Source: an uncultured Gammaproteobacteria bacterium (GTDB lineage: Bacteria; Patescibacteriota; Patescibacteriia; Veblenbacterales; UBA10138). From it: a stretch of DNA of 64,000 nucleotides. Made by a program: the position numbers and the translations under genes. The DNA lies in the NCBI GenBank assembly GCA_964453605.1, contig CAYVOI010000001.1, forward strand, positions 166,276-230,275, read 5' to 3'. The notes under the pieces are model-generated. The model searched no databases and had not been told where the DNA came from. It saw only the letters and a program-made list of their open reading frames with translations. Shown piece by piece: positions 610-61,503 of this stretch; the stretch's first letter is position 1; the number at the start of each line of letters is the position of its first letter.

Positions 610-3600
610 ATGAAAATGAGAATTTTGTTGAGCATAGTCTTAGCTGGTTTGCTGTTTATAAGCTCTAGCCCAGCCTGGGCTCAGCTGGGTGGGGTAACAC
701 CACCAGTAGAACCAGCGCCAGTTTCAACTCCGGCCGAGCCAACAGTGGTAACGCCGCCAGCTGATACAGTCACCACTCCTACTGAACCAGTTACCCAAAT
801 CGTCACTCCGCCAGCCGACACCACGGCGCCGGTAATTTCTGGCGTAGCCAACCTCTCGCTCGCCGAGCACGATGCCACGATTGTGTGGACCACTGATGAG
901 TTGGCTGTTTCGACACTTGAGTATGGCACGAGCGCAAGTTACGGGCAGCAGGCCACCTTAGGCGTCAGTGCGCTGCTCGCGCACACCGCAGTTCTTACTG
1001 GTCTTAGTTCGGGCACCACCTACTACTACTGTATTCACGCCGCCGACTTAGCAGGTAACGCCGCCAACTCTTGTGGCCATACGTTCACCACTGCTGCGCA
1101 AACTGTTGTTCTCGACACCACGCCGCCCGACGTTACGCTGGTAACCGTGTCGCCGGTCACTGCCACAGGAGCAACCATTACCTTCACCACCAGTGAAGTA
1201 GGGAATGCACGAGTTGAATACGGAACAACTGCTGGCTATGGACAATCGACGCCGCTCGATACCGACCTTGCGCTCTCGCACAGCGTAACACTTAGTGGTC
1301 TCACGCCGAACACGCTGTACCATTACCGAATTATTACGAGTGATGAAATTGGGAACGAGAACATAACTCCCGACGAAACATTTACCACCACTACCCTGGG
1401 CGCACAAGCCAATGTTGGTTCTGCTGATACCACGCCCCCGGTTATTTCGGGCGTGGGTACGGTTACCCTCGGGCTCACCGACGCTACCATTGTTTGGGAA
1501 ACGAATGAGCTTTCCATTTCCACACTTGAGTACGGCACCACGCCAAACTACGGCTCGCACGCTACGCTTCCCTTAAGCGCACTGCTTGCACACAGCGCGA
1601 CCTTAACTGGCCTTGCCGCCAGCACAACGTACTACTACTGCATTCACGCCACCGATATCGCCGGAAATTCGACCACCTCGTGTCCGCACTCCTTCACTAC
1701 CCAGGCTACTAGCTCAGGGGGGTATGAAGCTATGCCGAATGTGCCCGTTACGCCACCCCTACAACCGGTCGAGCCGCCCCAACTCCCACAAACTCCTACG
1801 CCCGAGGTGCCTGGCTCTGGCGGGCAACTAGCGACTGTCACTATTACTGCGGTTGAAGCCAGTACTGTGAGTCAGACCGAGGTAACCATCACCTGGCATA
1901 CGGATGTGCCAGCCGATTCGCAAGTGTTCTATGGTGACAGTGAAAATCTAGGTAGTGCTAGTGAACTAAGCTTGACCCTTACCACCTCACACTCGGTTAC
2001 ACTTTCTGGCCTTACACCGAATACGAACTATGTGTTCCGCGTACAATCGAAACCAGTTGGGGCCCTCACTGCTACCACCCCCGGCTACTACGAGTTTACC
2101 ACCTTAAGCCACGAGGTACCGATTGTGGCGCCAGCTAACATTATAGCCGTTTCAGCTAGTGGAATTACCGCTACCAGCGCCACCATTACCTGGTTAACTG
2201 ACAAAGCTGCCACAGCGCACGTGGAGTACGGCATTTCGCCAGGCTATGGTGTTGTGTCCACGTCCAACCTAACACTCGCGACATCTCACGCCATAACTCT
2301 GACCGACCTGGAGCCCGCTACCGCCTACCATTTCCGCGTGAGATCGGTTGACGAGGCAGAGAATGAAACATTTTCGGAAGATTATACGTTTACCACTGCT
2401 GTCGCACAGTCTGGTTCCTCTGGGGGTAGCAGTGCGCTCAGCACCCCGGCCGCTATTACCGGATTAAGTGTTGGGGGATACGACAACGCCTCGGTAGAAC
2501 TTGTGTGGCACACTGAGAGCGCTAACGCCGACGTAGCCGCGCTCTACGATATTCGCTATAGTACTTCTCCCATTACTGCCGCAAGTTTCGAGAACGCTTC
2601 CCCTGCCCAAGCCACGCCAATTTACTACGGTGATGTAAGTCCACAGGGCACCACGCGCGCCTACATTGTGGCGGGGCTAGAGCCAAACACTATGTATTAT
2701 TTTGCGCTTACGTCGAAGCATGAGGCGAGCGCGTACTCCGATATATCAAACGTAGTTTCAATTACTACCAATAACACGAGCGTAGATACAGGAGCAGGAG
2801 AAGCTACGCCTGGTGTAGGGTCTAGTGCAGTGGGTGGTGGTAGCAGTGCTGGTGGTGGGGCTCTTGGTGGCTCAGTCAGTACACCGTACGGTGATGGCTC
2901 TGGCGGTACGTCCAGCGGGAGCTTTGAACCAACCATGGTAAAAGCCGAACCGGTTGACGGACAAATTGTTTTTTCCTGGCGTAACCCTGGAGAGCAGAAC
3001 TTCGTGCGTACGGTAATTGTGCGTAAAGTAGGTGGGTACCCATCATCGCCGGCCGACGGCACAACTATTTACGAAGGCCGCGGTGCCACCTACGCCGATA
3101 CCGTCCTTACGAATGGTGTAACGTACTTCTACGCGCTGTACTCCTATAACCACAGTAAAATCTACTCAAAAGGGCTATTGGTTTCCTTGGCGCCCAAGGC
3201 TGACATCAGGCAAGTACAGTTCAATGAAGGCGGAACACTGACCACCGTTGGCCCCGTATTCCATTTTGTCCGCAGCTGGAAACGGGGTGACAAGAACATC
3301 GAGATAGAACACTTGCAGGAGCTGTTGGTGGCTGATCGCGATTCATACCCCGAGCAGTACATCACCGGCTACTTCGGGGCACTCACCGAGGCAGCGCTCA
3401 GGCGTTTTCAGAAAAAGCACGGCCTCCCACAAACGGGAATTGTCGACGCCGCTACACAGAAGGAGCTGAATACTGTATCGCAGTCAGAAACCAGGTTGAA
3501 TATTCCCACCGACCTGGTGGTGTTTACTACCGATCTCAAGTTTGGGGATAGGGGCGAGGCGGTGAAAGATTTGCAACAGTACCTTATCTACGAAGGTAGT

Positions 3601-8382: not shown

Positions 8383-8895
8383 GTGGTGTATACTAAGAGT
8401 ATGCGCTACAGCCAAGAGCAGTACGTGTGGGAAACACTCCGACTCGTGATGGGTTGGCTGTTCCTCTGGGCTTTTTTCGACAAGCTGTTTGGGTTAGGGT
8501 TTGCGACGCTGCCTGACAAGGCTTGGGCGGGGGGCGCCTCGCCAACCTACTGGTTTTTGAAGTTTGCTGCCACTGGCGCCATGGGTAGCTTTTACCACCA
8601 CCTGGCTGGTAGTGGACTAGTGGATTGGTTGTTCATGCTAGGGTTGCTAGCAGTGGGGGTAAGCTTAACACTCGGCATACTAGTGCGGTTGGGGAGTTTA
8701 CTGGGGGTGCTGATGGTACTGCTTATGTTTACCGCCCTCTCGCTCCCACCCGCCAACAACCCGCTGTTTGATGAGCACATTGTGTATGCCGTGGTCTTTT
8801 TTGGTATTCACGTTACCCGGCCTGGGTTGTGGCTTGGCTTAGGCAACTGGTGGCGCAGTACCACGTTGGTACGGGGGTACCCGTGGTTAGAGTAA
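8383..8895 (+). CDS. DoxX-family membrane protein
   Basis: 4 predicted TM helices, WLFLWAFFDKLFG motif typical of DoxX. Confidence 0.55.
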   Translation: MVYTKSMRYSQEQYVWETLRLVMGWLFLWAFFDKLFGLGFATLPDKAWAGGASPTYWFLKFAATGAMGSFYHHLAGSGLVDWLFMLGLLAVGVSLTLGILVRLGSLLGVLMVLLMFTALSLPPANNPLFDEHIVYAVVFFGIHVTRPGLWLGLGNWWRSTTLVRGYPWLE

Positions 8896-15677: not shown

Positions 15678-15781
15678 CTAGTGTTTCGCCCATAGGCAAG
15701 GGTACGAAACATGCCAGCTTAGCACAGGGGCCGAACCTTGTCAAGGCCCATTGGTTAGTACGTTAAAAGGTAAAAATAATA

Positions 15782-15811
15782 GAGGCTACTCGCAATATTG
15801 CGAGTAGCCTC
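15782..15811 (-). terminator. perfect 14-bp-arm palindromic terminator downstream of minus-strand 312-aa gene
   Basis: GAGGCTACTCGCAA-ta-TTGCGAGTAGCCTC; T-run follows on minus strand (complement of AAAAATAAT). Confidence 0.7.
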
Positions 15812-15886
15812 TTAAGTTGCGAACCCTAGACCCAAGCCGCCTTGGGCGGAACACAAGGTTCAATTATTCGAACATCAAGGTACAGA

Positions 15887-34401: not shown

Positions 34402-35763
34402 ATGTCTGGTATTAAAGCCACGGTTCGTAAAGTTATACCCAAGTGGGGCTTAGGCCTCTATCATGCAGGTTATGCGTTTATTGCTGCAGCACGTTACGGG
34501 TTTCCCGGGCGGCGTTTAGTTGTGGTTGGCATCACTGGTACTAAAGGGAAGTCGACCACCTGTGCAATGGTGTGGCATATTTTACGTTCGGCTGGTTACA
34601 AAACCGGCCTTATCTCAACGGCGCAACTTTCGAGTGGCGGCGAGGCTAGAATTAGTGACCTAAAGATGACCATGCCCTCGCCGTTTTGGTTGCAGGGGTT
34701 TTTGCGAGACATGGTCCTGGCGGGCTGCACGCATGCAGTTGTCGAAACTTCTTCCGAGGGCTTAGCCCAGTGGCGCAGTTTAGGGATTAACTACCGTGTA
34801 GCAGTGTTCACAAACTTGGCCCCTGAGCACTTGGAAGCACATGGCAGCTATGCCGCCTACCGGGCAGCTAAGGGCAAACTCTTCCGCTTAGTAGGGGGGT
34901 CTGGTGGCACGAATGTAGTAAACCTCGACGATGCTGAGGCCAGGTACTTTCTGCAGTTTCCTACGCAGTCACGTTATGGTTACACATTACACGACGCACA
35001 CCCTGATGGTTTGACTAAAACATTCGCTGCTCAGGTGCAAGAGGTGACACCACGGCAGGCCCGGTTTACGTTTGGTGTTATACCAGTTGAGCTGTCCGTA
35101 GGTGGTGAGTTCAATGTGTACAATGCCCTGGCTGCTCTGGCTGCAGCACAAGCTGTTGGTGTCCCGCTAGAAAAATCAGCTGCAGCACTTGCAACTTTTT
35201 CTGGTACACCTGGGCGTTTGGAGTTTGTAACTTCTGAACCGTTTAACGTGGTAGTGGACTACGCCCACACACCAGAGTCGCTCGAGGCGGTATACTGTAC
35301 CCTCAAGCCGTCGACCGAACCTACGCCAAATCACTACCTGTCAAATTTGTCCGGCCGGACAAATTTGACAGGGCTTAACGGCCGGTCCCGTTTGATTGCA
35401 GTGTTAGGCTCTTGCGGTGGCGGGCGCGATAAGGCTAAACGCGAGCCGCTCGGGAAGTTGGCTGGGTACTACGCTGATCTGATAGTAGTGACAGACGAAG
35501 ATCCCTACGATGAAGATCCATTAAGCATCATGCAGTCCGTGGCTACGGGTGTCAGAGCGGCCGGAAAAAAAGAAGGAGAAAATTTTTGGATTGTGCCAGA
35601 GCGTAAGGAGGCAATCCGCCGGGCTATGTCACTTGCTCGAGCAGGGGATACGGTGGTCATAACCGGCAAAGGCGCCGAGCAGTGGCTGTGCGTTGCAGGT
35701 AACAAAAAAATTCCCTGGGACGATCGCCAGGTGGTACGTGAGGAGTTAGTTAAAGCTTCCTAG
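34402..35763 (+). CDS. murE: Mur ligase family protein (MurE-like UDP-N-acetylmuramoyl-tripeptide synthetase) with short N-terminal extension and internal insertion
   Basis: VVGITGTKGKSTT P-loop, DYAHTPESLEAV, GSCGGGRDKAKRE motifs; ~15-aa insertion between DYAHTP and GxCGGxRD motifs coincides with palindrome. Confidence 0.75.
   Translation: MSGIKATVRKVIPKWGLGLYHAGYAFIAAARYGFPGRRLVVVGITGTKGKSTTCAMVWHILRSAGYKTGLISTAQLSSGGEARISDLKMTMPSPFWLQGFLRDMVLAGCTHAVVETSSEGLAQWRSLGINYRVAVFTNLAPEHLEAHGSYAAYRAAKGKLFRLVGGSGGTNVVNLDDAEARYFLQFPTQSRYGYTLHDAHPDGLTKTFAAQVQEVTPRQARFTFGVIPVELSVGGEFNVYNALAALAAAQAVGVPLEKSAAALATFSGTPGRLEFVTSEPFNVVVDYAHTPESLEAVYCTLKPSTEPTPNHYLSNLSGRTNLTGLNGRSRLIAVLGSCGGGRDKAKREPLGKLAGYYADLIVVTDEDPYDEDPLSIMQSVATGVRAAGKKEGENFWIVPERKEAIRRAMSLARAGDTVVITGKGAEQWLCVAGNKKIPWDDRQVVREELVKAS
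35337..35372. repeat. perfect 36-bp palindrome (18-bp arms, no spacer) inside Mur ligase coding sequence
   Basis: CCTGTCAAATTTGTCCGG|CCGGACAAATTTGACAGG read directly; encodes in-frame YLSNLSGRTNLTGL. Confidence 0.9.
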
Positions 35764-45074: not shown

Positions 45075-45097
45075 TTTGGGAGCCTGGAAGTTATAAA

Positions 45098-45127
45098 CCC
45101 CACGGGTGGCCACCCGTGGGGTTTTGG
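45098..45127 (+). terminator. rho-independent terminator after rpoC
   Basis: CCCCACGGGTGG-CCACCCGTGGGG followed by TTTTGG. Confidence 0.8.
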
Positions 45128-50890: not shown

Positions 50891-51667
50891 ATGCTGCCTG
50901 TGTATATTAGGCGTTTCTTGGTTGACCCGCGGCGGCGGGTGGCGCTGAGTTTAACGCTGGTCTGGCTCATAGCCGCCTGGCACTACGGCTTTGGGCAGTT
51001 TTTGTGGTGGCCGGCAGTTTGTGCTGTGGTAGCAGAAGCTACCGAGGTGTTGTGGCACGCCTTGTTCCAGCGGCGTTTTATTTTTAACTACTCGGCGCTA
51101 GTCACCGGGCTTCTCATTGGGCTTTTGGTGTACCCGGGGGCCTATGTTTTGGCTGTGGCGCTGCCGGTGGCAGCGATCATTTTAAAACGGTTATTGTACC
51201 CGAAAGAGCGGCCCATGTTTAACCCTGCCGCCTTAGCAATAGTCCTGGCGGCTCTGCTCCTTAATGTGCCCACCTCGTGGTGGGGCGTGGCTTGGAGCCC
51301 ATGGTTGGGCCTGGCACTAGCCTTGAGTGTGCTAGATGTACTGTGGAAGCTGAAGCTGTGGATGGTACCGTTTACGTTCCTGGTAGGTTACGCCGCCTAC
51401 CTCAGCCAATCAGGTGGGCTGGCTGGTGCCTGGCCGCTGCTCTTTGATGGTACCGTGCTGACGTTTGCTTTTGTGATGCTGCCTGAGCCAAGGAGCGGGG
51501 TGCAGGGCTTGCCACTGATTGGCAAGCTGACGTTTCCTGTGGTTGTGCTCGGCAGTATAGTTTTGTTAGCTCGCTGGCCTGCCCCTTCACTCGACCCGCT
51601 ACTTACTGCCTTGCTCATAACGTCGCTACTTTTTTCGTTGCGCCGCTTAGCATCAAAAACTCATTGA
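50891..51667 (+). CDS. polytopic membrane protein, unknown function
   Basis: 7-8 hydrophobic helices; TATACT -10 at 50876..50881. Confidence 0.5.
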   Translation: MLPVYIRRFLVDPRRRVALSLTLVWLIAAWHYGFGQFLWWPAVCAVVAEATEVLWHALFQRRFIFNYSALVTGLLIGLLVYPGAYVLAVALPVAAIILKRLLYPKERPMFNPAALAIVLAALLLNVPTSWWGVAWSPWLGLALALSVLDVLWKLKLWMVPFTFLVGYAAYLSQSGGLAGAWPLLFDGTVLTFAFVMLPEPRSGVQGLPLIGKLTFPVVVLGSIVLLARWPAPSLDPLLTALLITSLLFSLRRLASKTH

Positions 51668-51725
51668 GATAAAAATAAACAGAGCTTGGTAGAGCCAGCT
51701 CTGTTTGCAAAACGACGAAGGGAGT

Positions 51726-52520
51726 TCAGCATAGTGTGACTCCGTCACCTACGTGGATCACACCTACGGATAGGTGGTTCATATTTCGGCCAAAGAGCAC
51801 TGTGTTTCCGAGCCCGCGGTAGGTGCTTAAGGTAGCGAGAGGTTCAGCACCTTTTTCGCTGGTGGCTTGGTTTATGGTGGTAGTAACACACCGCTGGCAC
51901 CCGGTGGTGCCGATGAACCCTACACCGTTAACCACGATTTCGCCCCACCGGTCTTCAGCATAAGGTTCTGAGCCAGTGACCACTATATTCGGCCGAAACC
52001 TGTTCATGGGCAGCGGTTGCTCATTTTTCTCCCGCAGACGGCGGTTCAGGTCTTCGAGCGAGGCTTCACCGAGGAGCATAAAGGAGTAGGCGTCGGCGTA
52101 CGCCACCCTGACGACAGCAGATTTTGCCGGGCGAATAGTGTCCCTCGGCATGCGTACCAGTCGGCAGCGGCGGCCGAGGAACTCACTGAGCCATACAGCC
52201 ACCTCTTTGCCCTGGTATACGCCTACCGTGGTGTCCTCGTGTACGGTAACAGCTAGGCCCTTGCCGCCTCGTCGTTCGAGTGGAACGTCGATATTGGGCA
52301 TGGTGGGGGCAGAGAGCTTGAGCACCTCAGCGGTAATAGCGGTATGGATCAGGCAGAGCCCGGGGACTTCGCGCTGGCTCAAGAACCTGCCAGCTTCATT
52401 GATTACCATCCACTCTCGGTCATACTGTAAGCCACGCTCAGCTACCACCGCTCGCCGTTGTGAAATCCCTTGGCATGATTTCACTGGGTAGGTGTTAATT
52501 TGCGTAACAGTTACGTTCAT
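51726..52520 (-). CDS. MOSC (MoCo sulfurase C-terminal) domain protein
   Basis: MNVTVTQINTYPVKSCQGI... MOSC_N beta-barrel plus MOSC domain with conserved Cys (GTTGCQRC). Confidence 0.75.
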   Translation of the reverse strand: MNVTVTQINTYPVKSCQGISQRRAVVAERGLQYDREWMVINEAGRFLSQREVPGLCLIHTAITAEVLKLSAPTMPNIDVPLERRGGKGLAVTVHEDTTVGVYQGKEVAVWLSEFLGRRCRLVRMPRDTIRPAKSAVVRVAYADAYSFMLLGEASLEDLNRRLREKNEQPLPMNRFRPNIVVTGSEPYAEDRWGEIVVNGVGFIGTTGCQRCVTTTINQATSEKGAEPLATLSTYRGLGNTVLFGRNMNHLSVGVIHVGDGVTLC

Positions 52521-52642
52521 GGTTTATTCTCCTTTGGTTTTGATTTTTCTTTTTGGTATTGAGAGCTCATCTTAGCCTCAGGCAATTATTTTGTCAAACA
52601 AAAACTGCCCACGCTGGGTAGGCAGTGCGCTGGGAATTGAGC

Positions 52643-53209
52643 TTAGGCTCGCTCTACGTAGGTACTGGTTTCAGTGTTCACCACCACGAGTTCGCCCTCT
52701 TTTATGAACAGGGGAACGTTTACGGTGAGGCCAGTTTCGAGCTTAGCCTGCTTGGTGCCGCCGGTAGCAGTGTCGCCCCTGACCCCAGGCGGGGTCTCCA
52801 CTACCTTGAGCGTAACTTTCTTAGGTAGCTCCACGGTAATGGGGGAGCCGTTGAAGTTCAGAATGTTGACCTCTAAACCCTCTTTCAGGAACTTAAGCTG
52901 GTCGCCCAAGGTCTCTTTGGAAAAGTCGAATTGCTCAAAACTCTCCTGGTTCATGAAGTGGCAGTGGGTGTCATCGGCGTAGAGGAAGCTAGCCTTAGTG
53001 CGCGACATGTCGGCCTCCTCCACCTTGTCGCCGGGTTTAAAACTCTGTTCTAGCACGCGGCCGGTAAAGAGGTGCCTGAGTTTGGTGCGCATCACCGGCT
53101 TGCGCTGGGCGGTGCGCATGAACGAAGCCTCCAAAACCTGGTAGGGTTCTTCGTTCACCAGAATGTTGAGGCCAACTTTAATGGAGTTGAGGGAAGGGAG
53201 TACTGACAT
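52643..53209 (-). CDS. efp: elongation factor P
   Basis: Start at ATG 53209 (MSVLPSLNSIKVG...; track start 53218 is TTG); KPGKG-like loop region and full-length EF-P similarity. Confidence 0.9.
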   Translation of the reverse strand: MSVLPSLNSIKVGLNILVNEEPYQVLEASFMRTAQRKPVMRTKLRHLFTGRVLEQSFKPGDKVEEADMSRTKASFLYADDTHCHFMNQESFEQFDFSKETLGDQLKFLKEGLEVNILNFNGSPITVELPKKVTLKVVETPPGVRGDTATGGTKQAKLETGLTVNVPLFIKEGELVVVNTETSTYVERA

Positions 53210-53297
53210 AGGTAGCAAATAACAACTAGCGAATGGCCAATAGTATTTAGATTCAGGCAGAGTTTAGGAACCAGCCACTCGGAACCGGGAACTAATA

Positions 53298-53543
53298 TTA
53301 CTTCATGACGAATGGTACCAAGGCCATGGTGCGGGCGCGTTTGACCGCCAGGGCAAACTTGCGCATGTGCTTGAGGCAGGTGCCGGTACGGCGGCGGGGT
53401 AGCAATTTGCCGTGGCTGGAGGTGAACTTCTGTAAAATGCGGGTGTCTTTATAATCAATATCGTTCAAACCATTGACGCAGAAGTAGCAGACGCGGACTT
53501 TAGGCGCTACCGTGGTAACTTGTTTGCGGTGGTTACTTGGCAT
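53298..53543 (-). CDS. rpsR: 30S ribosomal protein S18
   Basis: ...YKDTRILQKFTSSHGKLLPRRRTGTCLKHMRKFALAVKRAR... Confidence 0.9.
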   Translation of the reverse strand: MPSNHRKQVTTVAPKVRVCYFCVNGLNDIDYKDTRILQKFTSSHGKLLPRRRTGTCLKHMRKFALAVKRARTMALVPFVMK

Positions 53544-53561
53544 GGGTGGGTACTTAGGTGC

Positions 53562-53993
53562 TTAAAACGGAATGTCTTCCACGTTTACTGTTGGTTCTTC
53601 GGCTGAGGCTGGTGCAGCAGCCGGTTCGGGCATGCTCTGCGGCTCCTGAGTTTGCGGCCCGCCGTTGGCGCGGTCGAGCATGATGAAGTTTTCTGCCACT
53701 ACCTCGGTGCGCCAGTGCTTTGTTCCTTGGGCGTCGTCCCAGCTGCGGGTTTGGAGCCTGCCCTCCACATAGATTTTCATACCGCGCCGTAGGTACTGGC
53801 CAGCGATATCCGCTAAGCGGCGCCAGGCCACGACGTTGTGGAACTCGGCTTTCTCTTGCCGTTCGCCAGCGGGGTTGGTCCAGCGCATGTTGGTGGCAAT
53901 AGAGAACGTGGCCACGTTAGCGCCCTGGGTGGTGGTGCGCACCTCCGGATCGCGCGTTAAGTTGCCGATGAGCATTACCTTGTTGAGGTCCAT
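53562..53993 (-). CDS. ssb: single-stranded DNA-binding protein
   Basis: MDLNKVMLIGNLTRDPEVRTTTQGANVATFSIATN...; acidic C-terminal tail EDIPF. Confidence 0.9.
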   Translation of the reverse strand: MDLNKVMLIGNLTRDPEVRTTTQGANVATFSIATNMRWTNPAGERQEKAEFHNVVAWRRLADIAGQYLRRGMKIYVEGRLQTRSWDDAQGTKHWRTEVVAENFIMLDRANGGPQTQEPQSMPEPAAAPASAEEPTVNVEDIPF

Positions 53994-54015
53994 AGGGGTA
54001 GTAGTTAAGGTTACG

Positions 54016-54495
54016 TTACTTAACTTCTTCTTCCAAAATTTGTTCCAGCTTTTTGTCGAGCTCTTCCAAGTTTACCTTGGGTTGCTCCTCGGCGGCTGGC
54101 GCAGCCGGAGCTAAGGCGGCCACCTTAGTCGCTTCCTCAGCCTTAGCGTGGAGCCGGGCGAGCTTGGCTTGTAGTGCCCGTTCGCGCTCTAGCTGCTCGG
54201 GTGACTTGACCTTCTTATCTACTATCATAGCCCTGAGTACGTCAGGCGACAGGCGGAACCAATCGTTAATCTGTTTTACCTTGTCAGTCGGCAGGTCGCA
54301 CTCCAGCACCACATAGTGGCCATGGCGTACGTGGTTTATAGGGTAGGCCAGCTTGCGTTTGCCCAACGAGTCCTCGTGGGTAATCTTGGCGCCGGCCGCG
54401 GTCAAGGTGGCGCGTACCTTGTCCTGCACTGCCCCGGGCTCATCGCCAGTTGCCTTCAGCGGGACAATGTACATGATTTCGTAGTGGTTTGTCAT
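54016..54495 (-). CDS. rpsF: 30S ribosomal protein S6 with C-terminal Ala/Glu-rich extension
   Basis: Start at internal ATG (MTNHYEIMYIVPLKATGDEPGAVQDKV...). Confidence 0.9.
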   Translation of the reverse strand: MTNHYEIMYIVPLKATGDEPGAVQDKVRATLTAAGAKITHEDSLGKRKLAYPINHVRHGHYVVLECDLPTDKVKQINDWFRLSPDVLRAMIVDKKVKSPEQLERERALQAKLARLHAKAEEATKVAALAPAAPAAEEQPKVNLEELDKKLEQILEEEVK

Positions 54496-54640
54496 AAAGG
54501 TGGTCTGACTAACAAAAAAACGCTTGAAGTTAAGAGGTTGGCCCTCACCTGTACGTCGCGCCCGTAAGGGCGGACCGGTGAGGCCCCGTGGTCCCGCAGT
54601 GCGGGATTTTACGGGGGTGGAGCGCTCAAAAAGCGCTAGC
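54496..54640 (-). promoter_or_regulatory. structured 5' leader of rpsF-ssb-rpsR operon (candidate S6:S18 autoregulatory leader)
   Basis: ~145 nt with nested hairpins (GCGCTttttgaGCGC, CCCGCActgCGGG, long-range CCTCACC...GGTGAGG) between promoter and rpsF ATG. Confidence 0.45.
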
Positions 54641-54647
54641 GGGGGGA

Positions 54648-54676
54648 AGCTTACCACAGGCCTAAAGCATTGGCAA
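54648..54676 (-). promoter_or_regulatory. promoter TTGCCA-17-TGgTAAGCT for rpsF operon (minus strand)
   Basis: minus read cTTGCCAatgctttaggcctgTGGTAAGCTtcc. Confidence 0.5.
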
Positions 54677-54699
54677 GCCCCTAACGTACAGCGCTAGCA

Positions 54700-54708
54700 T
54701 GGTATACT
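54700..54708 (+). promoter_or_regulatory. extended -10 TGGTATACT 10 nt before methyltransferase ATG, divergent from rpsF promoter
   Basis: caTGGTATACTggggctacctATG. Confidence 0.5.
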
Positions 54709-54718
54709 GGGGCTACCT

Positions 54719-55915
54719 ATGCCAACCTACGTAGCCATGCTAGGGCGAGAGCCAGAACTTAGCGTGGCTGAAGTTGTGGCACTCGCCACGCGTCTTGGCC
54801 TGAAGCTCACCTGGGCTGACCTGAACCAGCGCTACGCTGTGTTTGAGGTTGACTGCGAAGCTGCTGAGCTCAAGCCATTAGCTGGTTTGGTTAAGCTTGC
54901 TCAGGTAGTAAGCACTGTTCCGAGCACAAAAGAAGCTCTGTTCGCCCTGGCGCACGATACGTTAACGGAGAGCGGCTACGACCAGTGGCACTTTGGGTTT
55001 AGCTGGTACGGCCAGCCCCCCCGTTGGTTAACTGCTGTTGGTATGGAGCTGAAGCGTGCGGCCAAGGAAGGTGGTCGGCGTGCACGTTTGGTTGTGGCAC
55101 GAGGGGCGGAGCTTTCCTCCGTTGTGGTAGCAAAGAACAAGCTGTTGCCGCCTAAGGGTTGCGAGTTTGTTGTTTTTCCCAAGGAGTCAGAGGAACTTTT
55201 GGTAGCCAGGACACTTTGGGTGCAAGAGTTTGAAGCCTGGGGCGAGCGCGACTACGGCCGGCCAGAGCGTGATGCTAAAGTTGGCATGCTGCCACCAAAG
55301 CTGGCGCACATGATGGTGAACTTAGCTCAAGTTCCAACCGAGGGGAAAATACTCGACCCATTTTGTGGGTCAGGCACCGTGCTGCAAGAGGCGGCGGTGT
55401 TGGGGTATCAGAATTTAATTGGTACCGATAGCGACGCCCGGGGTGTCGAGCGCACGCGAGCGAATTTTGCCTGGCTCAAACAGCACTATTCAAACATAGC
55501 CGAGCCCGAGCTTGCGGTGTCTGACATTCGCAAACTCCTCTCCACCCTTCAGAACAGACAGTTTGATGCCATTATTACCGAACCTTACCTTGGGCCACCG
55601 CTTCGGGGTAAGGAACAGCAAGGTGAGCTTCGGAAAGTAGCGCAAGAGCTCACCGAGTTCTACAGTGCAGTGCTTAAAGTGCTGGCGCAAGCGTTGCGTG
55701 CCGGCGGTCGCCTGGTTATGGTGTGGCCGGTGGTCCGAGGGAGGGGCGAAGAGCACCTGCTTGCTTTGGTGACTCACGCTCACGACCTAGGCCTTAAGGT
55801 GCAGAACCTGCTGCCCGATAGCGCCCCCCACACCTGGCATCGCAAACGCGGCTCGCTGCTCTACGAGCGGCCGGACCAACACGTGGCCCGGGAGATTTTC
55901 GTTTTCGGCAAGTAG
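54719..55915 (+). CDS. THUMP/TRM11-like SAM-dependent RNA methyltransferase
   Basis: KILDPFCGSGTVLQEAAVLGY (motif I), IITEPYLGPP (NPPY-like motif IV) typical of N2-G/N6-A RNA MTases. Confidence 0.65.
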   Translation: MPTYVAMLGREPELSVAEVVALATRLGLKLTWADLNQRYAVFEVDCEAAELKPLAGLVKLAQVVSTVPSTKEALFALAHDTLTESGYDQWHFGFSWYGQPPRWLTAVGMELKRAAKEGGRRARLVVARGAELSSVVVAKNKLLPPKGCEFVVFPKESEELLVARTLWVQEFEAWGERDYGRPERDAKVGMLPPKLAHMMVNLAQVPTEGKILDPFCGSGTVLQEAAVLGYQNLIGTDSDARGVERTRANFAWLKQHYSNIAEPELAVSDIRKLLSTLQNRQFDAIITEPYLGPPLRGKEQQGELRKVAQELTEFYSAVLKVLAQALRAGGRLVMVWPVVRGRGEEHLLALVTHAHDLGLKVQNLLPDSAPHTWHRKRGSLLYERPDQHVAREIFVFGK

Positions 55916-55986
55916 TAGTTTGCATCATTTTGTTATGTGGACATCGTAGATAGTGCCAATAAGATGCCACGTCTATTTTATAAGGA

Positions 55987-56020
55987 TAAAAAATAGAGCC
56001 GACAACGAATTGTCGGCTCT
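55987..56020 (-). terminator. terminator hairpin downstream of minus-strand 122-aa gene
   Basis: AGAGCCGACAA-cgaa-TTGTCGGCTCT; T-run on minus strand. Confidence 0.6.
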
Positions 56021-56034
56021 TGGATTGTCTAAAC

Positions 56035-56403
56035 CTACCATCTTCTTTCGATATAGACCGAGCCGCTGCGCCTGTGCGTGTTCACCTCAATATAGGCTTT
56101 GAGCTGCAGCTCAGGCATTCTCTCAGGAGATACTGTGGCCTCGATCTCGAAGTTGTCCTTGTTGATTTTTGAGCTGTGTATATCTTTAAGTATCACCACC
56201 CGACCCTTGCCGAGACCCATTTGTTGGTGACGGATGGCCTCTTCACCAGTGACGTATTGGGGCTCTATGGTAAACCACACCCGTTCTTGGATCAGTATTT
56301 GGGGGTACCCAGAGGCGATGAGAAGTTCCATTTTTGATGGGCCACTAATTGTCCAAAAACAGAAATGGGTCTTCAGCAGTTCCTCGTGCTTCGTAGTTGC
56401 CAT
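56035..56403 (-). CDS. hypothetical protein (122 aa)
   Basis: Start at ATG 56403 with SD AGAGGGG 8 nt upstream; dedicated terminator; no recognised domain. Confidence 0.45.
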   Translation of the reverse strand: MATTKHEELLKTHFCFWTISGPSKMELLIASGYPQILIQERVWFTIEPQYVTGEEAIRHQQMGLGKGRVVILKDIHSSKINKDNFEIEATVSPERMPELQLKAYIEVNTHRRSGSVYIERRW

Positions 56404-56621
56404 GACGACAACCCCTCTCTTTGGTTTACAGCGCTTTGGGGGCGCTTTCCCCGTTATCCGCCCGGGGCGGACCACCTAACCATAACGGCTAGGAATTCAT
56501 TAACCAATGTTTTTGGTTAACACTTATTTGTATACCAAATCGCTAATGCTGTCAAGCCCTAAACACTAAACCTAAAGTGGCAGCTATCGTTAGGTAGTGT
56601 TGCTTGTTGTTTTTATAGACT

Positions 56622-56653
56622 GGGTTTTTATGTCCAGCTGGACATAAAAACCC
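56622..56653. repeat. perfect 32-bp palindrome (16-bp arms) in AT-rich intergenic region
   Basis: GGGTTTTTATGTCCAG|CTGGACATAAAAACCC. Confidence 0.9.
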
Positions 56654-56797
56654 AACCAGGGCTGCTCCTCAGGTGAGGGCAGGATTAGTCTTCCAGGTAG
56701 TGGACGGTAGGGCCTATTACGTCGCCGTCGTGTTTTGTTGAGTATAGGAATCTTTCGTGCGAAAGGTTCCATGGTGGTTCTGTAGAGCATTTGGTAT

Positions 56798-56827
56798 TTG
56801 ACAAAAGTCGTCGGGGGGGGGTAGAGT
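56798..56827 (+). promoter_or_regulatory. candidate promoter TTGACA-18-TAGAGT whose spacer contains a G9 homopolymer (56813..56821)
   Basis: tTTGACAaaagtcgtcGGGGGGGGGTAGAGTagg, 35 nt upstream of ATG 56862. Confidence 0.45.
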
Positions 56828-56861
56828 AGGACTGGTCATAATTATTAACTGATAACCATAT

Positions 56862-57569
56862 ATGGATAGGGGAGAACTTGATTTAAATCGAGAAGACGAA
56901 GCCTATAAAGAACTATTGAAAAAAGCCAGTCTACTAATAGATGGGCATTTTGACAACCCCACATTTTTTAGTTATGAGCAGAAAGTTACACAATGTGAAC
57001 CTATACCCAATCAACCCGATTACAATTTAATTACGGCCGTAATTAATGACCGGGGGACATCATCTGCCATTGAAGACATTGGTTTTTTTATTTTAGGTAA
57101 CGATGGCACTCTTTTAACGGAAACGCCAGACCTGATTAGTGCAAAAGAAAAAAGTCTAAATATAAAGCTTGATAAAAGTAAAGAGATGCTACCAGGACCA
57201 GTTGCTCGGGCGACGGTACACCGCAGCGTGGACTCAGGCTCATTTGGGTCCGTTGATTACAATAATAAGAGTTATAAAGTCAGTTATGCGTTTACCGATA
57301 GCGGCACTCTGCTTATAAGAAGTAAGTTGGCTAGAGAGGGACAGGAAACAATTATACCCGTTACCGATAGGGATGTAATGAATGTCGAGGATAGGTCTGA
57401 GCATGAGTACAGTGTCAGCGAGGATACCGAAGAGATTACTGAAGAGTTGAATTTTGATTTACAAAAGCTGTATCTACACCATAAGCGAACCATTAGACGT
57501 CCCGGTACAAAAGATGTAGTTCGAGATCTATCGGCCAGTCTAGTAGAGGTTAAAGAGTCGGGAAGTTAA
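56862..57569 (+). CDS. hypothetical protein (ORFan) in AT-rich islet
   Basis: 235 aa, acidic, no domain recognised; local AT-richness. Confidence 0.5.
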   Translation: MDRGELDLNREDEAYKELLKKASLLIDGHFDNPTFFSYEQKVTQCEPIPNQPDYNLITAVINDRGTSSAIEDIGFFILGNDGTLLTETPDLISAKEKSLNIKLDKSKEMLPGPVARATVHRSVDSGSFGSVDYNNKSYKVSYAFTDSGTLLIRSKLAREGQETIIPVTDRDVMNVEDRSEHEYSVSEDTEEITEELNFDLQKLYLHHKRTIRRPGTKDVVRDLSASLVEVKESGS

Positions 57570-57666
57570 GCCAAGCTCCGAAAAATTATCGCATGTGCAG
57601 GTTTTAGTCGAAAATATTGATTTTAGTCTACGTAGTGACACATAGGTGAGGAACACGCGAGCTGTT

Positions 57667-58728
57667 TTAGGTGCTGAATCTAAAGTGGCAAATGTCGCCG
57701 TCGTGCACCACGTAGTCTTTGCCTTCCAGCCGGAGCTTGCCAGCTTCCCGCGCGCCGCTTTCGCCACCGGCAGTTACAAAATCTGCGTAGGCTATTACCT
57801 CAGCACGAATAAAACCCTGTTCAAAGTCGGTGTGAATAACACCAGCGGCTTGGGGTGCTTTGGTGCCCGCTGTTATAGTCCAAGCGCGTGATTCCTCCGG
57901 CCCGGTGGTGAAGTACGTTATGAGGTTAAGCAGTTTGTAGCTGGCGTGGATAAGTTTGTCGAGCCCGCTCTCTTGAAGCCCAAGATCTTTGAGCATGTCG
58001 CGGGCCTCGTTAGGCGCAAGGTCAGCCAGTTCAGCCTCGAGCTTGGCGGAAATTTGAATGTTAGGGAGTAGGGAGTAGTCAGTAGCGAGTAGGTTTTCGT
58101 CAGAGTTTATAACGTAGAGTAACGGCTTGGCTGTTAGGAGTTGTAGCTCGCGCACGAGTTCTGCTTCTTCCTCGTTCAGTTCTAGGGTTCGTGCAGGCTT
58201 GCCCTGGTTCAGGTGTTGGGCCGTTCGTTCCAGCGCAGCTATTTGTTTGCCAACAGTTTTATCTTGTCCGGTTTTAAGCTTGGGCCGGAGGCTCTGGAGG
58301 CGTTTTTGCACGGTGCTTAAGTCCGCCATGGCGAGCTCCAGGTTTATAACTTCAGCGTCCCCCGTGGGGTCTACCTTGTTCGCCACATGGATAATGTTGG
58401 GGTCCTTAAAGGCTCGCACCACTTGGACAATAGCATCCACCTCGCGAATGTTGCTGAGGAATTGGTTCCCCAAACCTTCACCTTGGTGGGCATTTTTCAC
58501 TAAACCAGCAATGTCCACAAACTCTATGGTGGTGGGAATAGTTTTGGCTGATTTAGACAGCTCGGTGAGTTTAGCTAGCCGCTCGTCCGGCACCTCCACC
58601 ACCCCGACGTTAGGGTCTATGGTGGCAAAGGGGTAGTTCTCAATCACTACCTGTTTGCGGGTTAGAGCCTTGAACAGGGTCGACTTGCCAACGTTGGGCA
58701 GGCCCACAATACCAACTTGGAATGACAT
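57667..58728 (-). CDS. ychF: ribosome-binding ATPase YchF (Obg-family GTPase)
   Basis: Start at ATG 58728 (MSFQVGIVGLPNVGKSTLFKALT...); TGS domain at C-terminus. Confidence 0.9.
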   Translation of the reverse strand: MSFQVGIVGLPNVGKSTLFKALTRKQVVIENYPFATIDPNVGVVEVPDERLAKLTELSKSAKTIPTTIEFVDIAGLVKNAHQGEGLGNQFLSNIREVDAIVQVVRAFKDPNIIHVANKVDPTGDAEVINLELAMADLSTVQKRLQSLRPKLKTGQDKTVGKQIAALERTAQHLNQGKPARTLELNEEEAELVRELQLLTAKPLLYVINSDENLLATDYSLLPNIQISAKLEAELADLAPNEARDMLKDLGLQESGLDKLIHASYKLLNLITYFTTGPEESRAWTITAGTKAPQAAGVIHTDFEQGFIRAEVIAYADFVTAGGESGAREAGKLRLEGKDYVVHDGDICHFRFST

Positions 58729-58791
58729 AAGCCACTTCACTCTAGCGTACTTTTTGTCTTTAGCAAACCTTGCGGTATACTGAAGCCCGGT

Positions 58792-59247
58792 ATGACCCGC
58801 GTAGTATTAGATACCAACGTACTTATAAACGCTGACCGTGGCGAGTTTAGCTACGGTAAGCGTATTGTAGAGCTGGTGCAGCAGGGGAAGATAGCTGCCG
58901 TAACCTCTCACCCAGTGCGGCGCGAGAACGAACTCCTAGTCGACCGTTTAGTCACCGACCCTAAGCTTAAGCGTGAGCTGGTGGAGTTTTTAGGTTTGGC
59001 TCAGCCGGTTGTGGCAGCATCAGTTGCCGTTACGCTCGAGGACCAGGAGGACGTTAAGCTCCTGGCGGCGGCGGTAGGTGGTAAGGCAGAGTTTTTGATT
59101 ACCGATGACCGGCATTTGCTTGAGGTAGAGGAGTACGAGGGGGTGAGGGTTGTTACGCCAGCGCAGTTCTGGCAGTGGTGGCAGAAATATGAGGACGAGG
59201 TAGGGGAAACGTGGGGTGCGTGGACCAGGGGTATCTTAGGTCGGTAG
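58792..59247 (+). CDS. PIN-domain protein (VapC-like nuclease fold), no adjacent antitoxin
   Basis: MTRVVLDTNVLINA...ITDDRHLL acidic PIN residues. Confidence 0.65.
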   Translation: MTRVVLDTNVLINADRGEFSYGKRIVELVQQGKIAAVTSHPVRRENELLVDRLVTDPKLKRELVEFLGLAQPVVAASVAVTLEDQEDVKLLAAAVGGKAEFLITDDRHLLEVEEYEGVRVVTPAQFWQWWQKYEDEVGETWGAWTRGILGR

Positions 59248-59254
59248 ATAAGAA

Positions 59255-59290
59255 AACCGTTCAGAGAGCAATGCTCTTCTCTGAACGGTT
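59255..59290 (-). terminator. terminator hairpin between PIN gene and minus-strand 87-aa gene
   Basis: AACCGTTCAGAGA...TCTCTGAACGGTT; T-run on minus strand. Confidence 0.55.
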
Positions 59291-59307
59291 GACTACTGAG
59301 TAGGTCG

Positions 59308-59571
59308 CTAGACTGCTAGGGCCATTTCTGGTTGAATTCCCGGCTCCATGGTGGCTTTGATGCCATTGGTCTGCAGAATCTGCAGGTGTTCGTCGGTGCC
59401 CTCGCACACTAGCATGAAGGGTGGGGTGACCTGGAGCCCGGAAGCTTGTGGCTTGGCATTCAAGCCGGTGAGGGTGCGAATCTTCTTGACCATTTCTCTG
59501 TAGGGAGGAATCATGGGGTGAGTCGCGGCCGCCTCAACTGTTATTTTCTGCACGTGGCTTGCAGCTGTCAT
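59308..59571 (-). CDS. hypothetical small protein (87 aa)
   Basis: ORF with downstream terminator; no recognised domain. Confidence 0.4.
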   Translation of the reverse strand: MTAASHVQKITVEAAATHPMIPPYREMVKKIRTLTGLNAKPQASGLQVTPPFMLVCEGTDEHLQILQTNGIKATMEPGIQPEMALAV

Positions 59572-59670
59572 AGAAACCTCGTTGTTGTATGGTGATTTTG
59601 GTTTGTAAAAACTTCGTATCCTTTTTAGGCAAGGATACGTCGAGTTGCCCCTACTGTCAAACCCTGTGTG

Positions 59671-61503
59671 TTAGCTTCTAGCCAGTGCAGCTTGGCGTTT
59701 GGCTTCGTTTTCGTCCAGTATCAGTTTACGAATGCGAACATTTTTGGGTGTAACTTCAACCAGCTCGTCAGCTCCAATGTATTCTAGAGAGTCTTCCAGG
59801 TCCATGGTGTGGGGGGTGTTGAAGTGTTCGGCGGAACCATCACCCTTGGAGCGCATGTTAGAAAGCTGCTTGGCCTTACACACGTTCACGCGAATGTCCC
59901 CTGGGCGCGAGTTCTGCCCGACCACTTGGCCCTTGTACACCTCTACCCCTGACCCAATGAACATAACGCCGCGGTCTTGCACGTTGAGAAGGCCATAGAG
60001 GTTGCTGGTGCCGCTTTCGTGCGCCACCAAGCTGCCCTGTTCGCGTTCGTGCCAGCCCCCGGGATCGGCTTGGTACTCAAAGAACATGGTGTTCATAATC
60101 CCCAAGCCGCGGGTGTCGGTGAGGAACTCAGTACGGTAGCCAAACAAACCCTTGGTCGGCACCGCAAACTCGAGGAACGTAATGCCGTTCTCCACCCGCA
60201 TTTCTTTAAGTTCGCCGCGCCGAGCGCCCAGTTTTTGTATGACTACACCAGCGTGTGCCTCGGGCACTTCAATAAATACCAGTTCATACGGTGTCAGGGT
60301 AGCACCGCCTGCTTGTTTATTGATTACCTGGGGCTGGGCGACCTGGAACTCATACCCCTCACGCCGCAAACGCTCAATCAAAATAGCCAAGTGCAGCTCA
60401 CCCCGGCCTGACACCACCCATCCGCCAGGCGGCGGTCCACTAGCGTCGTCTTCTACCCGAAGGGCCATGTCAGTTTCGAGCTCTTTGTAGAGCCGGTCCC
60501 TGACCTGCCGCGAGGTTACAAACGTGCCCTCGCGTCCGGCGAACGGGGAGTTGTTAACACTGAATGTCATTTTTACCGTGGGCTCCTCAATCTTCAACAA
60601 GGGGAGTGCTACCGGGTTCACGGGGTCAGCTACGGTTTCACCAATCGTGACGTCGGAAATTCCAGCCAGCGCCACAATGTCCCCAACGCTGGCGGAGGTT
60701 ACCTCCACCCGCCCCAAACCCTCAAACGTCATCAGAGAAACTAGGCGACACTTTTCGCTCTGGCCTTGGCGGTTGATGTGTGCCACCTCTTGCCCAGCCT
60801 TAACTGTGCCGTTCATGACCTTGCCAGTGGCGATGCGGCCCTTGAACGTGTCACCGCTGATGGTAGTAACCAAAATTTGTAAAGGCTTGTCAACCTCGCC
60901 CTTGGGCGCTGGCACGTACTTGAGGATAGCCTCAAAAATGGGGTTGATGTCCGTCATCTTGTTTAAGTCCGGCTCAAAGCCAGCTTTGCCGTCGCGGGCT
61001 GAGGCGTACACAATGGGGAAGTCGGCGGCTTCGTCGCTCGCCCCCAGTTCCACAAACAGGTCAAACGTTAGTCCGTGTACGTGGTCTATGCGGGCGTCTG
61101 GTTTATCTATTTTGTTTATGACCACAATAACCTTAAGCCCCATCTTAAGTGCCTGCTTTAGCACGAACCTGGTTTGGGGCATGGGGCCTTCCTTAGCATC
61201 CACCAGCAGCAGACAGCCGTCGGCCATGGTGAGTACGCGCTCTACCTCGCCGCCAAAGTCGGCGTGGCCGGGGGTGTCGATGATATTGATCTTGGTCCCT
61301 TGCCAGTTTATGGAAGCGTTCTTAGAGAAAATGGTGATACCGCGCTCACGCTCCAGCTCATTTGAATCCATGATCAATTCCTTGCTCTCCATTTCCTTAC
61401 CGAGCTTGGTTTTAGATTGGCGCAGCAAAGCATCGACCAGGGTAGTTTTACCATGATCGACGTGTGCAATGATAGCTACGTTACGAATGGAATTAGAGGT
61501 CAT
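59671..61503 (-). CDS. typA: translational GTPase TypA/BipA
   Basis: Start at ATG 61503 (MTSNSIRNVAIIAHVDHGKTTLVDALL...); EF-G-like domain series. Confidence 0.93.
   Translation of the reverse strand: MTSNSIRNVAIIAHVDHGKTTLVDALLRQSKTKLGKEMESKELIMDSNELERERGITIFSKNASINWQGTKINIIDTPGHADFGGEVERVLTMADGCLLLVDAKEGPMPQTRFVLKQALKMGLKVIVVINKIDKPDARIDHVHGLTFDLFVELGASDEAADFPIVYASARDGKAGFEPDLNKMTDINPIFEAILKYVPAPKGEVDKPLQILVTTISGDTFKGRIATGKVMNGTVKAGQEVAHINRQGQSEKCRLVSLMTFEGLGRVEVTSASVGDIVALAGISDVTIGETVADPVNPVALPLLKIEEPTVKMTFSVNNSPFAGREGTFVTSRQVRDRLYKELETDMALRVEDDASGPPPGGWVVSGRGELHLAILIERLRREGYEFQVAQPQVINKQAGGATLTPYELVFIEVPEAHAGVVIQKLGARRGELKEMRVENGITFLEFAVPTKGLFGYRTEFLTDTRGLGIMNTMFFEYQADPGGWHEREQGSLVAHESGTSNLYGLLNVQDRGVMFIGSGVEVYKGQVVGQNSRPGDIRVNVCKAKQLSNMRSKGDGSAEHFNTPHTMDLEDSLEYIGADELVEVTPKNVRIRKLILDENEAKRQAALARS

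Follow-up and report, generated by a model that had tools for sequence, protein, structure and literature searches.

The locus described here lies in a 64,000-nucleotide (nt) stretch of DNA (the window; GenBank assembly GCA_964453605.1, contig CAYVOI010000001.1 of 876,493 bp, positions 166,276 to 230,275), in which a segment of about 1.1 kb appears to have been inserted at the 3' end of ychF. The segment holds an orphan gene of 235 amino acids (aa), a promoter-like site with a run of nine G residues (G9) in its spacer, and a perfect palindrome. It is bounded by the functional ychF on one side and by a displaced copy of the last ychF codons on the other. The relatives of this YchF protein are Patescibacteria, several of them named Candidatus Kerfeldbacteria, and the host is a Kerfeldbacteria-like patescibacterium. 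The gene order typA - PIN - ychF -> [slot] <- methyltransferase - rpsF - ssb - rpsR - efp is conserved among the relatives. Between ychF and the convergent methyltransferase gene, the slot varies in content, and in the window copy it contains two orphans, the 235-aa gene and a 122-aa gene. The central features are listed below in window coordinates; contigs and loci from other assemblies carry L numbers.

56559..56589, minus strand: displaced copy of the ychF 3' end, GAT AGC TGC CAC TTT AGG TTT AGT GTT TAG
56590..57666, no strand: inserted DNA, 1,077 bp, low GC, ychF-like only in the pieces listed here
56621..56654, no strand: perfect palindrome of 34 bp without a spacer (TGGGTTTTTATGTCCAG/CTGGACATAAAAACCCA), with a conserved 20-bp apex, TTATGTCCAGCTGGACATAA
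56721..56732, minus strand: second ychF-like fragment, CACGACGGCGAC, encoding H D G D ahead of I-C-H-F in ychF
56798..56827, plus strand: sigma-70-like promoter TTGACA-18 nt-TAGAGT, a consensus match (-35 box 56798-56803, -10 box 56822-56827)
56862..57569, plus strand: 235-aa orphan gene, ATG at 56862
57570..57666, no strand: gap of 97 nt from the orphan gene stop to the convergent ychF stop
57667..58728, minus strand: functional ychF (Pfam YchF-GTPase_C and MMR_HSR1), 87% identical to the closest relative

The ychF 3' End and the Inserted DNA

The fraction of guanine plus cytosine (GC) is 0.38-0.45 across 55900-57700, compared to 0.52-0.62 in the flanks. The compositional shift in the original prediction is therefore real, with its wording reversed, as it is GC and not AT content that falls. 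Within this region, the sequence features support 56590-57666 as the foreign DNA, with boundaries given to the base (1,077 bp, GC 0.421 vs. ~0.55 in the flanks). The islet initially delimited as 56480-57660 must be redrawn accordingly, as its AT-rich portion at 56480-56589 is the predicted native promoter of the 122-aa gene together with the ychF remnant, outside the insert. Its description as a horizontally acquired cassette is supported by the ychF-end repeat, the foreign GC content at third codon positions (GC3), the absence of the cassette from relatives, and the presence of a different insert in the closest relative. The synteny comparison proposed as a check found the 1.1-kb segment to be absent from every relative examined.

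The functional ychF gene ends in GAC ATT TGC CAC TTT AGA TTC AGC ACC TAA, encoding D I C H F R F S T stop, and the minus strand of the remnant at 56559-56589 translates as D S C H F R F S V stop. The proximal copy of this repeat consists of the last 31 nt of ychF (57667-57697), and the two copies lie exactly 1108 bp apart and in register. They match at 8 of 10 codons, stop included, a level that none of 3000 composition-matched Markov simulations approached, since none reached even 7; when any 10-residue window of YchF was allowed, 1 of 300 simulations reached 8 codon matches. Seven of the ten nucleotide differences between the copies fall at third codon positions (P = 0.02), which argues that they diverged as coding sequence and not by decay of a duplicate in place. 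The second ychF-like fragment, CACGACGGCGAC at 56721-56732, is identical over 12 of 12 bases to 57694-57705, and in 41 of 20000 simulations (P = 0.002) a 12-mer matched the final 110 nt of ychF on the same strand. In ychF this fragment directly abuts the remnant sequence; here, 138 nt that include the palindrome intervene. No further similarity to ychF was found in the insert beyond the listed pieces. A decayed tandem duplicate of ychF, to which the 1108-bp period (approximately gene plus spacer) might point, was rejected, as in-register identity is ~25% beyond the first 50 nt and local DNA and protein scores are no higher than those of shuffled sequences.

The terminal residue distinguishes the two copies. 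The remnant ends in ...FSV-stop, as do the insert-free relatives L002-L004, L055, L073, and L075 (V in 6 of 6), and the working copy ends in T. On this comparison, the V ending of the remnant is the ancestral one and the T of the working copy is non-ancestral. Mosaic structure marking a crossover within ychF was not readable, as the relatives are too diverged.

The closest relative, recovered as L053 and L054 from two JGI samples (YchF identity 87%; GC 0.535), repeats the ychF end 874 bp downstream of its true position (L053 1190-2210; L054 3022-4030). A promoter, a gene for a 219-aa HTH_17/MerR-type protein, and a hairpin lie between the two ends. The L053 copies are identical at 97 of 108 nt; four differences lie at the start of the repeat, where homology fades, and otherwise the divergence is almost entirely in the last three codons (AGC AAC TAA vs. 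GGC GTG TAG), with terminal N in the working copy and V in the displaced copy. The two lineages thus carry different cargo, with the junction in each falling in the last three to four ychF codons, after a shared core, TGCCACTTTAG(G). Among other relatives, the slot is 154 bp long without a gene in L073, holds one gene in L074 (adenosine deaminase) and in L075 (a 147-aa protein), and holds four genes in L002 and L003.

The reading favored here, with a probability of roughly 0.6, is the recent acquisition of a small insert by the hypervariable slot that separates the conserved convergent genes for YchF and an RNA/DNA methyltransferase. From the sequences and by analogy with known prophages, we infer that the ychF-end footprint reflects Campbell-type integration of an element carrying an attachment site that imitates the gene end. 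A circular element carrying a mimic of the ychF 3' end would have recombined with the chromosome within the core TGCCACTTTAG(G), supplying new final codons to ychF and pushing the original ones to its far side. Because the insert encodes no recombinase, this enzyme would have acted in trans or would since have been lost. The empty-site form would read ...TGCCACTTTAGGTTTAGTGTTTAG joined straight to the ychF body. The palindrome would be a module of its own, one of the copies of a dispersed palindromic element, and the orphan gene would most likely be transcribed from its own -35-dependent promoter, TTGACA-18-TAGAGT, with a leader of ~27 nt lacking a Shine-Dalgarno sequence. As G9 lengthens the promoter spacer by one base past the optimum, slippage in this tract would be expected to change promoter strength.

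A precedent is prophage e14 at icd of Escherichia coli, where the element supplies replacement terminal codons and the original 3' end persists as a pseudo-fragment (PMC6379469). As with e14 and phage 21, the site at ychF lies in the last codons of a conserved housekeeping gene that is kept intact, and as with e14 there is a conservative terminal change, a displaced 3' end, and imperfect direct repeats (PMC6379469). The features that define integration of this type are largely present: direct repeats made of the 3' end of the target gene, replaced terminal codons in the working copy with ancestral ones in the displaced copy, an unoccupied site in a relative (L073), and use of the same site by other inserts (L053/L054). 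The element's own integrase is the exception, as the single open reading frame (ORF) has no recombinase domain and tblastn with three tyrosine recombinases gave no hit in the window. Unlike e14, the insert is just 1.08 kb in length and carries one orphan gene without integrase or excisionase; the repeat comprises 31 nt and a detached 12-mer instead of 163 bp, and the host is a patescibacterium in which ychF is targeted. Elements that integrate at the 3' end of a protein-coding gene and bring a replacement end are already known; the present case is unusual in its small size and its lack of a recombinase.

Several points weigh against this reading. The repeat is short (31 nt, 68% identical) and interrupted, and no integrase, excisionase, or transposase was found in the insert or the 64-kb window by tblastn with three tyrosine recombinases or by Pfam scans of the slot proteins. 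A same-species allele with an empty site was not found among the fetched relatives, and since the nearest of these is only 87% identical in YchF, “recent” is a relative term. With respect to expression of the cargo, promoter-like matches number 5 in 3 kb where 3.1 are expected, and the orphan gene has neither of the common start architectures of this genome (leaderless TATACT or Shine-Dalgarno), so that its expression is predicted only.

Patescibacteria carry competence genes, and a fragment from a related donor, taken up by natural transformation, could have been anchored by homology in ychF and joined farther downstream by homology-facilitated illegitimate recombination, with the duplicated gene end as a by-product and no involvement of a site-specific recombinase. 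This route would account for the lack of a recombinase in cis, which extends to the L053/L054 insert, and for the differing repeat lengths (31 nt vs. ~108 nt); the third-position bias also fits two orthologous functional ychF genes, and recA lies nearby in a relative. Nevertheless, it appears unlikely. The junctions of two lineages fall within the same three to four final codons, and both have lost an otherwise invariant V, which a same-clade donor would be expected to bring as ...FSV. Divergence of the L053 gene ends is confined to the last 9 nt instead of being spread over the repeat, and the GC3 of the insert (0.35) does not match the GC3-rich working end of ychF. Site-specific integration is preferred because the junction recurs, the terminal residue changes twice, and the L053 divergence is sharp-edged. 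Little is known about how genes enter the tiny genomes of Patescibacteria or how their expression varies, and the locus would provide a case, resolved to the base pair, in which a gene was gained at a site in repeated use, the final ychF codons, with a footprint like that of integrative elements in model bacteria.

Two further observations concern the slot in relatives. In the 219-aa HTH_17/MerR-like protein of L053/L054, the C-terminal half is receiver-like. Four independent assemblies of relatives with 83% YchF identity (L055-L058, from ENA, Logan, NCBI, and JGI) all end 108-219 nt past the ychF stop, shortly after a terminator hairpin, which points to strain heterogeneity or to a repeat at this slot in that species.

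The Orphan Gene and the G9 Promoter

The 235-aa ORFan of the original prediction is a real ORF: its stop-free run of 237 codons exceeds those of all 1000 shuffles (maximum 170). GC1, GC2, and GC3 of the gene are 0.517, 0.356, and 0.347, respectively, compared to a GC3 of 0.51-0.72 in host genes. The protein is acidic (isoelectric point 4.8) and hydrophilic (grand average of hydropathy -0.6) and has no N-terminal hydrophobic stretch; sequence inspection revealed no signal peptide, membrane segment, or surface-type repeat. It is also without relatives, the only hit among 5.8e9 protein clusters being to itself. A HMMER scan of 1.84e9 representatives yielded one further match, P0003 (E = 4.5e-14, 11 stretches), which was judged an artefact. 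This score is summed over near-identical sushi repeats, with matches of 37 aa at ~30% identity; P0003 is a eukaryote-like sushi-repeat protein, and the orphan protein lacks the sushi cysteines. No match was obtained in Pfam, PHROG, PADLOC, NCBIfam, or PDB sequences, the gene is absent from all fetched relatives, and the viral contigs contain no relative of the protein. Structure prediction, which had been proposed as a check, was uninformative, as AlphaFold run without an alignment gave a model that is unusable, with a predicted local distance difference test (pLDDT) score of 37.

The motif TTGACA-18(G9)-TAGAGT is present in the sequence at 56798-56827 as predicted, upstream of the 235-aa ORF; the distance from the -10 box to the ATG is 34 nt, one less than was stated. 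G9 occupies 56813-56821, the last nine of the 18 spacer nucleotides, and is the longest homopolymer in the window and the sole G or C run above 7. A first-order Markov model expects 0.76 G/C runs of at least 9 per window. The existence of G9 is therefore not significant by itself, and its position is the unusual part: a random position falls inside a promoter-like spacer ~3% of the time (author's estimate, from five sites in 3 kb).

Promoters elsewhere in the window differ from this one. Gene starts mostly have a TATACT-type -10 box, often TGGTATACT, which ends 6-10 nt before the ATG (e.g., at 8401, 9597, 28392, 34402, 54719, 58728 on the minus strand, and 58792), and a Shine-Dalgarno motif is found at 10 of 46 genes. 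On the basis of these patterns, the genome appears to use mainly leaderless or near-leaderless mRNAs, with poorly conserved -35 boxes. Five host promoters with a recognizable -35 box have spacers of 16, 16, 17, 17, and 18 nt. The orphan promoter is atypical in this setting, having a perfect -35 box, a weak -10 box, an 18-nt spacer, and no Shine-Dalgarno sequence; the ychF promoter of this genome likewise has TAGAGT as its -10 box. The predicted leader of ~27 nt is AT-rich and unstructured.

In the phase-switch proposal, the G9 tract would be subject to slipped-strand mispairing, with G8 (17-nt spacer) ON and G9 or G10 weak or OFF, giving stochastic expression of the orphan gene. Its geometric premise holds, as a homopolymer lies in an 18-nt spacer, one base above the 17-nt optimum, and the tract reaches the length of at least 8-9 units that characterizes such switches. 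Promoters with a perfect -35 box and a weak -10 box are the type most sensitive to spacer length, so the idea is mechanistically sound. Homopolymers in the spacers of phase-variable promoters are known from Neisseria porA and opc, Bordetella fim, and Mycoplasma vlp, and the present site resembles these poly-G/poly-C switches exactly in having ~9 G/C residues between the -35 and -10 boxes, where a one-base change shifts the spacer to or from 17 nt. Moreover, G/C runs decay ~5-fold per added base, making a 9-mer an outlier in 64 kb, and the 16-18-nt spacers of the host promoters (n = 5) also speak for the switch. Most phase-variable genes encode products with secretion or surface features, whereas the orphan protein is not evidently a surface protein and on inspection shows no signal peptide, membrane segment, or repeat typical of such products. 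The promoter is a consensus match, atypical for a genome whose promoters are mainly leaderless with poor -35 boxes, and the Markov expectation of 0.76 runs also counts against the switch. The NCBI assembly reads G9, as does the Logan contig that is recorded for SRR12313479 and SRR12313480, although a consensus G9 is weak evidence against phase variation because assemblies hide minor alleles. On balance, a functioning switch is improbable. If G9 does slip, the site would be an example of promoter phase variation in Patescibacteria, of which we know of no description.

A Dispersed Family of Palindromes

The palindrome had been noted as a perfect repeat of 32 bp (56622..56653); it is indeed perfect, with a length of 34 bp (56621-56654). 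As RNA it folds with -23 to -25 kcal/mol (z = -5.3 to -5.8). The two independent Logan assemblies of SRR12313479 and SRR12313480 are 100% identical to the window on both sides of the palindrome, and their contigs stop inside it because a de Bruijn graph (k = 31) cannot pass a palindrome longer than k.

An exact search of JGI metagenomes with the central 20 nt returned 14 loci, about ten of them distinct. At every one of these loci the apex 20-mer forms the centre of a perfect palindrome that spans 22-50 bp, with arms that differ between loci yet stay complementary. In an alignment of 15 sequences, 78 double-sided changes were counted, a number that none of 500 shuffles reached, and slid controls collapsed. 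G-U pairs are almost absent from the well-paired stem (alignment columns 12-28). As a negative control, chance matches to the 16-mer centre in viral contigs extended to no more than 18 bp, and these contigs contain no 20- or 24-mer apex, their 16-mer apex matches being attributable to chance. Copies from the same metagenome share arms at unrelated loci (L066/L067a/L067b; L059a/L059b/L062; L060a/L060b). Family members are found mostly 20-90 nt past stop codons, several of them between convergent genes, and the same apex is kept at non-orthologous sites in genomes with GC of 0.38-0.59. The locus palindrome sits between divergent genes and between two ychF-like pieces. Rfam searches returned nothing at the gathering threshold for the whole window or at E <= 1 for 55900-57700, and no counterpart of the family was found in the literature searched, where the motif matched unrelated primer sequences alone.

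Two sets of metagenome contigs connect the family with particular genes. In L059 (1095-1857) and L060 (1107-1906), along with the duplicate contigs L064, L063, and L068, a ~181-aa gene lies between two GTCCAGCTGGAC palindromes. Its product has a winged-helix and a PaaX_M/Cas2-like domain, and one of the palindromes is 44-100 nt upstream of the start. A homologue in L037 has a 40-nt palindrome behind it, the centre of which is not the same (GCGATCGC). L061, a contig of 3505 bp, contains a recombinase-in-trio (RIT) element in which three tyrosine recombinase genes overlap. Both of its ~62-nt terminal inverted repeats carry the identical 20-mer, set 10 nt in, and contain two more TTATGTnnAG half-sites, one pair being dif-like (11-6-11). 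The L061 inverted repeat has no match in 72,556 plasmids.

These properties indicate that the palindrome is most likely a dispersed, probably mobile element that acts as DNA, offering a symmetric site for protein binding or recombination; as a handle on mobile DNA or regulation, an element dispersed across many uncultured genomes could be useful. Readings as a plain terminator or a dif site are less likely. In the former, the palindrome would be a bidirectional intrinsic terminator or RNA-stabilising hairpin carried with the insert, and the region would be otherwise unorganised. The strong hairpin fits this view, which the positions of most family members after stop codons and between convergent genes also favor, and long perfect palindromes follow genes here (15781-15812, 45095-45124) and in other Patescibacteria (L037 7079-7118). 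However, an intrinsic terminator pairs a stable hairpin with a U-tract, and no U-tract or T-run follows the palindrome on either strand at the locus or in other members; the terminator scan did not call the 34-bp palindrome. The locus copy lies between divergent genes instead of behind one, and the constancy of the apex across non-orthologous sites of widely differing GC and the near absence of G-U pairs also count against this view. A copy upstream of the gene for a winged helix-turn-helix regulator is placed like an operator, and a three-recombinase element has another within its inverted repeats. The terminator view is therefore doubtful.

A dif-like dimer-resolution site at the replication terminus, exploited by the inserting element, is a very improbable identity for the palindrome. 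Gene orientation in the window flips from plus to mostly minus at ~51.5 kb, and cumulative GC skew has its maximum at 59.8 kb, 3 kb from the palindrome; this orientation switch and skew maximum indicate that the replication terminus probably lies in or near 51500-60000. The half-site also contains TTATGT, as XerD arms do, and L061 half-sites occur in the 11-6-11 arrangement. Yet dif sites are unique, and copies or close variants of the palindrome occur within ~1 kb of each other in L059, L060, and L067, with a further variant in murE. By sequence reading, the arms face outward from the centre, the wrong way for CATAA-N6-TTATG arms, and it is ychF and not the palindrome that is duplicated around the insert. 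The skew is flat, not falling, past 60 kb, where only 4 kb are visible. Of the hallmarks of a dif/Xer site (single copy, 11-6-11 spacing, properly oriented arms, terminus), the locus therefore offers a terminus location that is only suggestive. An integron attC site was rejected as well, as the palindrome is perfect, without bulges, R-box motifs, or a GTTRRRY core site at its base, and the cassette has its own promoter-like site. In the 97-nt gap between the orphan gene and ychF, where sequence reading and the terminator scan found no convincing terminator, a half-site-like ATGTGCAGG near 57591 is within chance (author's estimate ~0.07) and was not used.

REP/REPIN sequences and Rickettsia palindromic elements are dispersed short palindromic repeats. 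The present family is similar in consisting of short palindromes that lie mostly after genes, are mostly extragenic, and share arms within a metagenome, and, as with the Rickettsia elements, one variant lies in frame in a conserved gene (murE). Unlike both, its members are perfect and spacer-less, with a conserved apex and a variable base, and unlike REP/REPIN no RAYT-type transposase was seen and the 64-kb window has one copy and one variant. The occurrence of the apex in both inverted repeats of the L061 element, with its TTATGTnnAG half-sites, is reminiscent of RIT elements, and the PaaX_M-like gene between two palindromes recalls pdif modules, which lie between Xer sites. In contrast to RIT elements and pdif modules, no recombinase was found in the window or adjoining the other palindromes, and the palindrome is at one end of the insert only. 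A RIT element at the locus itself was rejected, since tblastn with three tyrosine recombinases found none in the window and the motif is present there in one copy only; L061 does have the features of such an element. The family thus resembles REP/REPIN sequences, Rickettsia elements, and pdif sites in differing ways, without showing the full set of defining features of any of them.

A more specific and rather speculative extension would make the palindrome more than a passenger and the family an undescribed set of perfect-palindrome recombination sites of Patescibacteria, with apex TTATGTCCAGCTGGACATAA and lineage-specific covarying arms, that are recognised by RIT-type tyrosine recombinases and that delimit single-gene cassettes and mobilise them in trans. 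Transposition of RIT elements has itself never been demonstrated (PMC10214605). If this extension were true, the orphan gene and the PaaX_M-like gene would be cassettes mobilised in trans, sites could land in frame even in essential genes such as murE, and the islet at the ychF end would be a visible outcome of a system that shuffles cassettes in ultra-small genomes.

Several palindromes outside the locus were recorded. The murE gene (34402..35763, plus strand) holds a perfect palindrome of 36 nt, CCTGTCAAATTTGTCCGGCCGGACAAATTTGACAGG, at 35337-35372 with a variant apex, GTCCGGCCGGAC; it is in frame (LSNLSGRTNLTG) and lies inside an insertion of ~22 residues in the inter-domain linker relative to solved MurE structures. 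Spacer-less perfect palindromes of 30-46 nt are common just after genes in these Patescibacteria. Both L037 palindromes share the centre GCGATCGC, and one of them is 4 nt past the ychF stop. The other long palindromes are as follows.

15781-15812 and 45095-45124, window
3178-3223, L006
835-870, L007
4552-4591 and 7079-7118, L037
862-893, L070

The 122-aa Gene and Clade Composition

The 122-aa gene on the far side of the remnant lies outside the insert and looks native. Its features are the following.

55995-56020: terminator of the 122-aa gene
56035..56403, minus strand: 122-aa orphan gene, native-looking, GC3 0.593 (host-like)
56500..56520, minus strand: inverted repeat TTAACCAA-N5-TTGGTTAA, where the leader of the 122-aa gene is predicted to begin
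56529..56558, minus strand: host-type promoter GGCTTGACA-15 nt-TGgTATACA, adjoining the ychF remnant and pointing at the 122-aa gene

The promoter has an extended -10 element, TGGTATAC(T), as at other genes of the window, and in the closest relative TAA-at-GGCTTGAC...TATAGT follows straight after the ychF stop. The predicted leader (56404-56530) is ~120 nt in length and folds into two GC-rich hairpins (-41 kcal/mol, z = -2.3), with no match in Rfam; a Shine-Dalgarno-like GAGAGGGG lies upstream of the gene. The protein found only itself among 5.8e9 clusters and had no match in Pfam, PHROG, PADLOC, NCBIfam, or PDB, and AlphaFold without an alignment gave a pLDDT of 44.

The clade itself varies widely in base composition. 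L002-L004, with 75-80% YchF identity, have a GC of 0.35-0.37, compared to 0.53-0.55 in the window and its two nearest relatives, and the contrast between L002-L004 and the window, L053, and L055 is a large compositional shift inside one clade.

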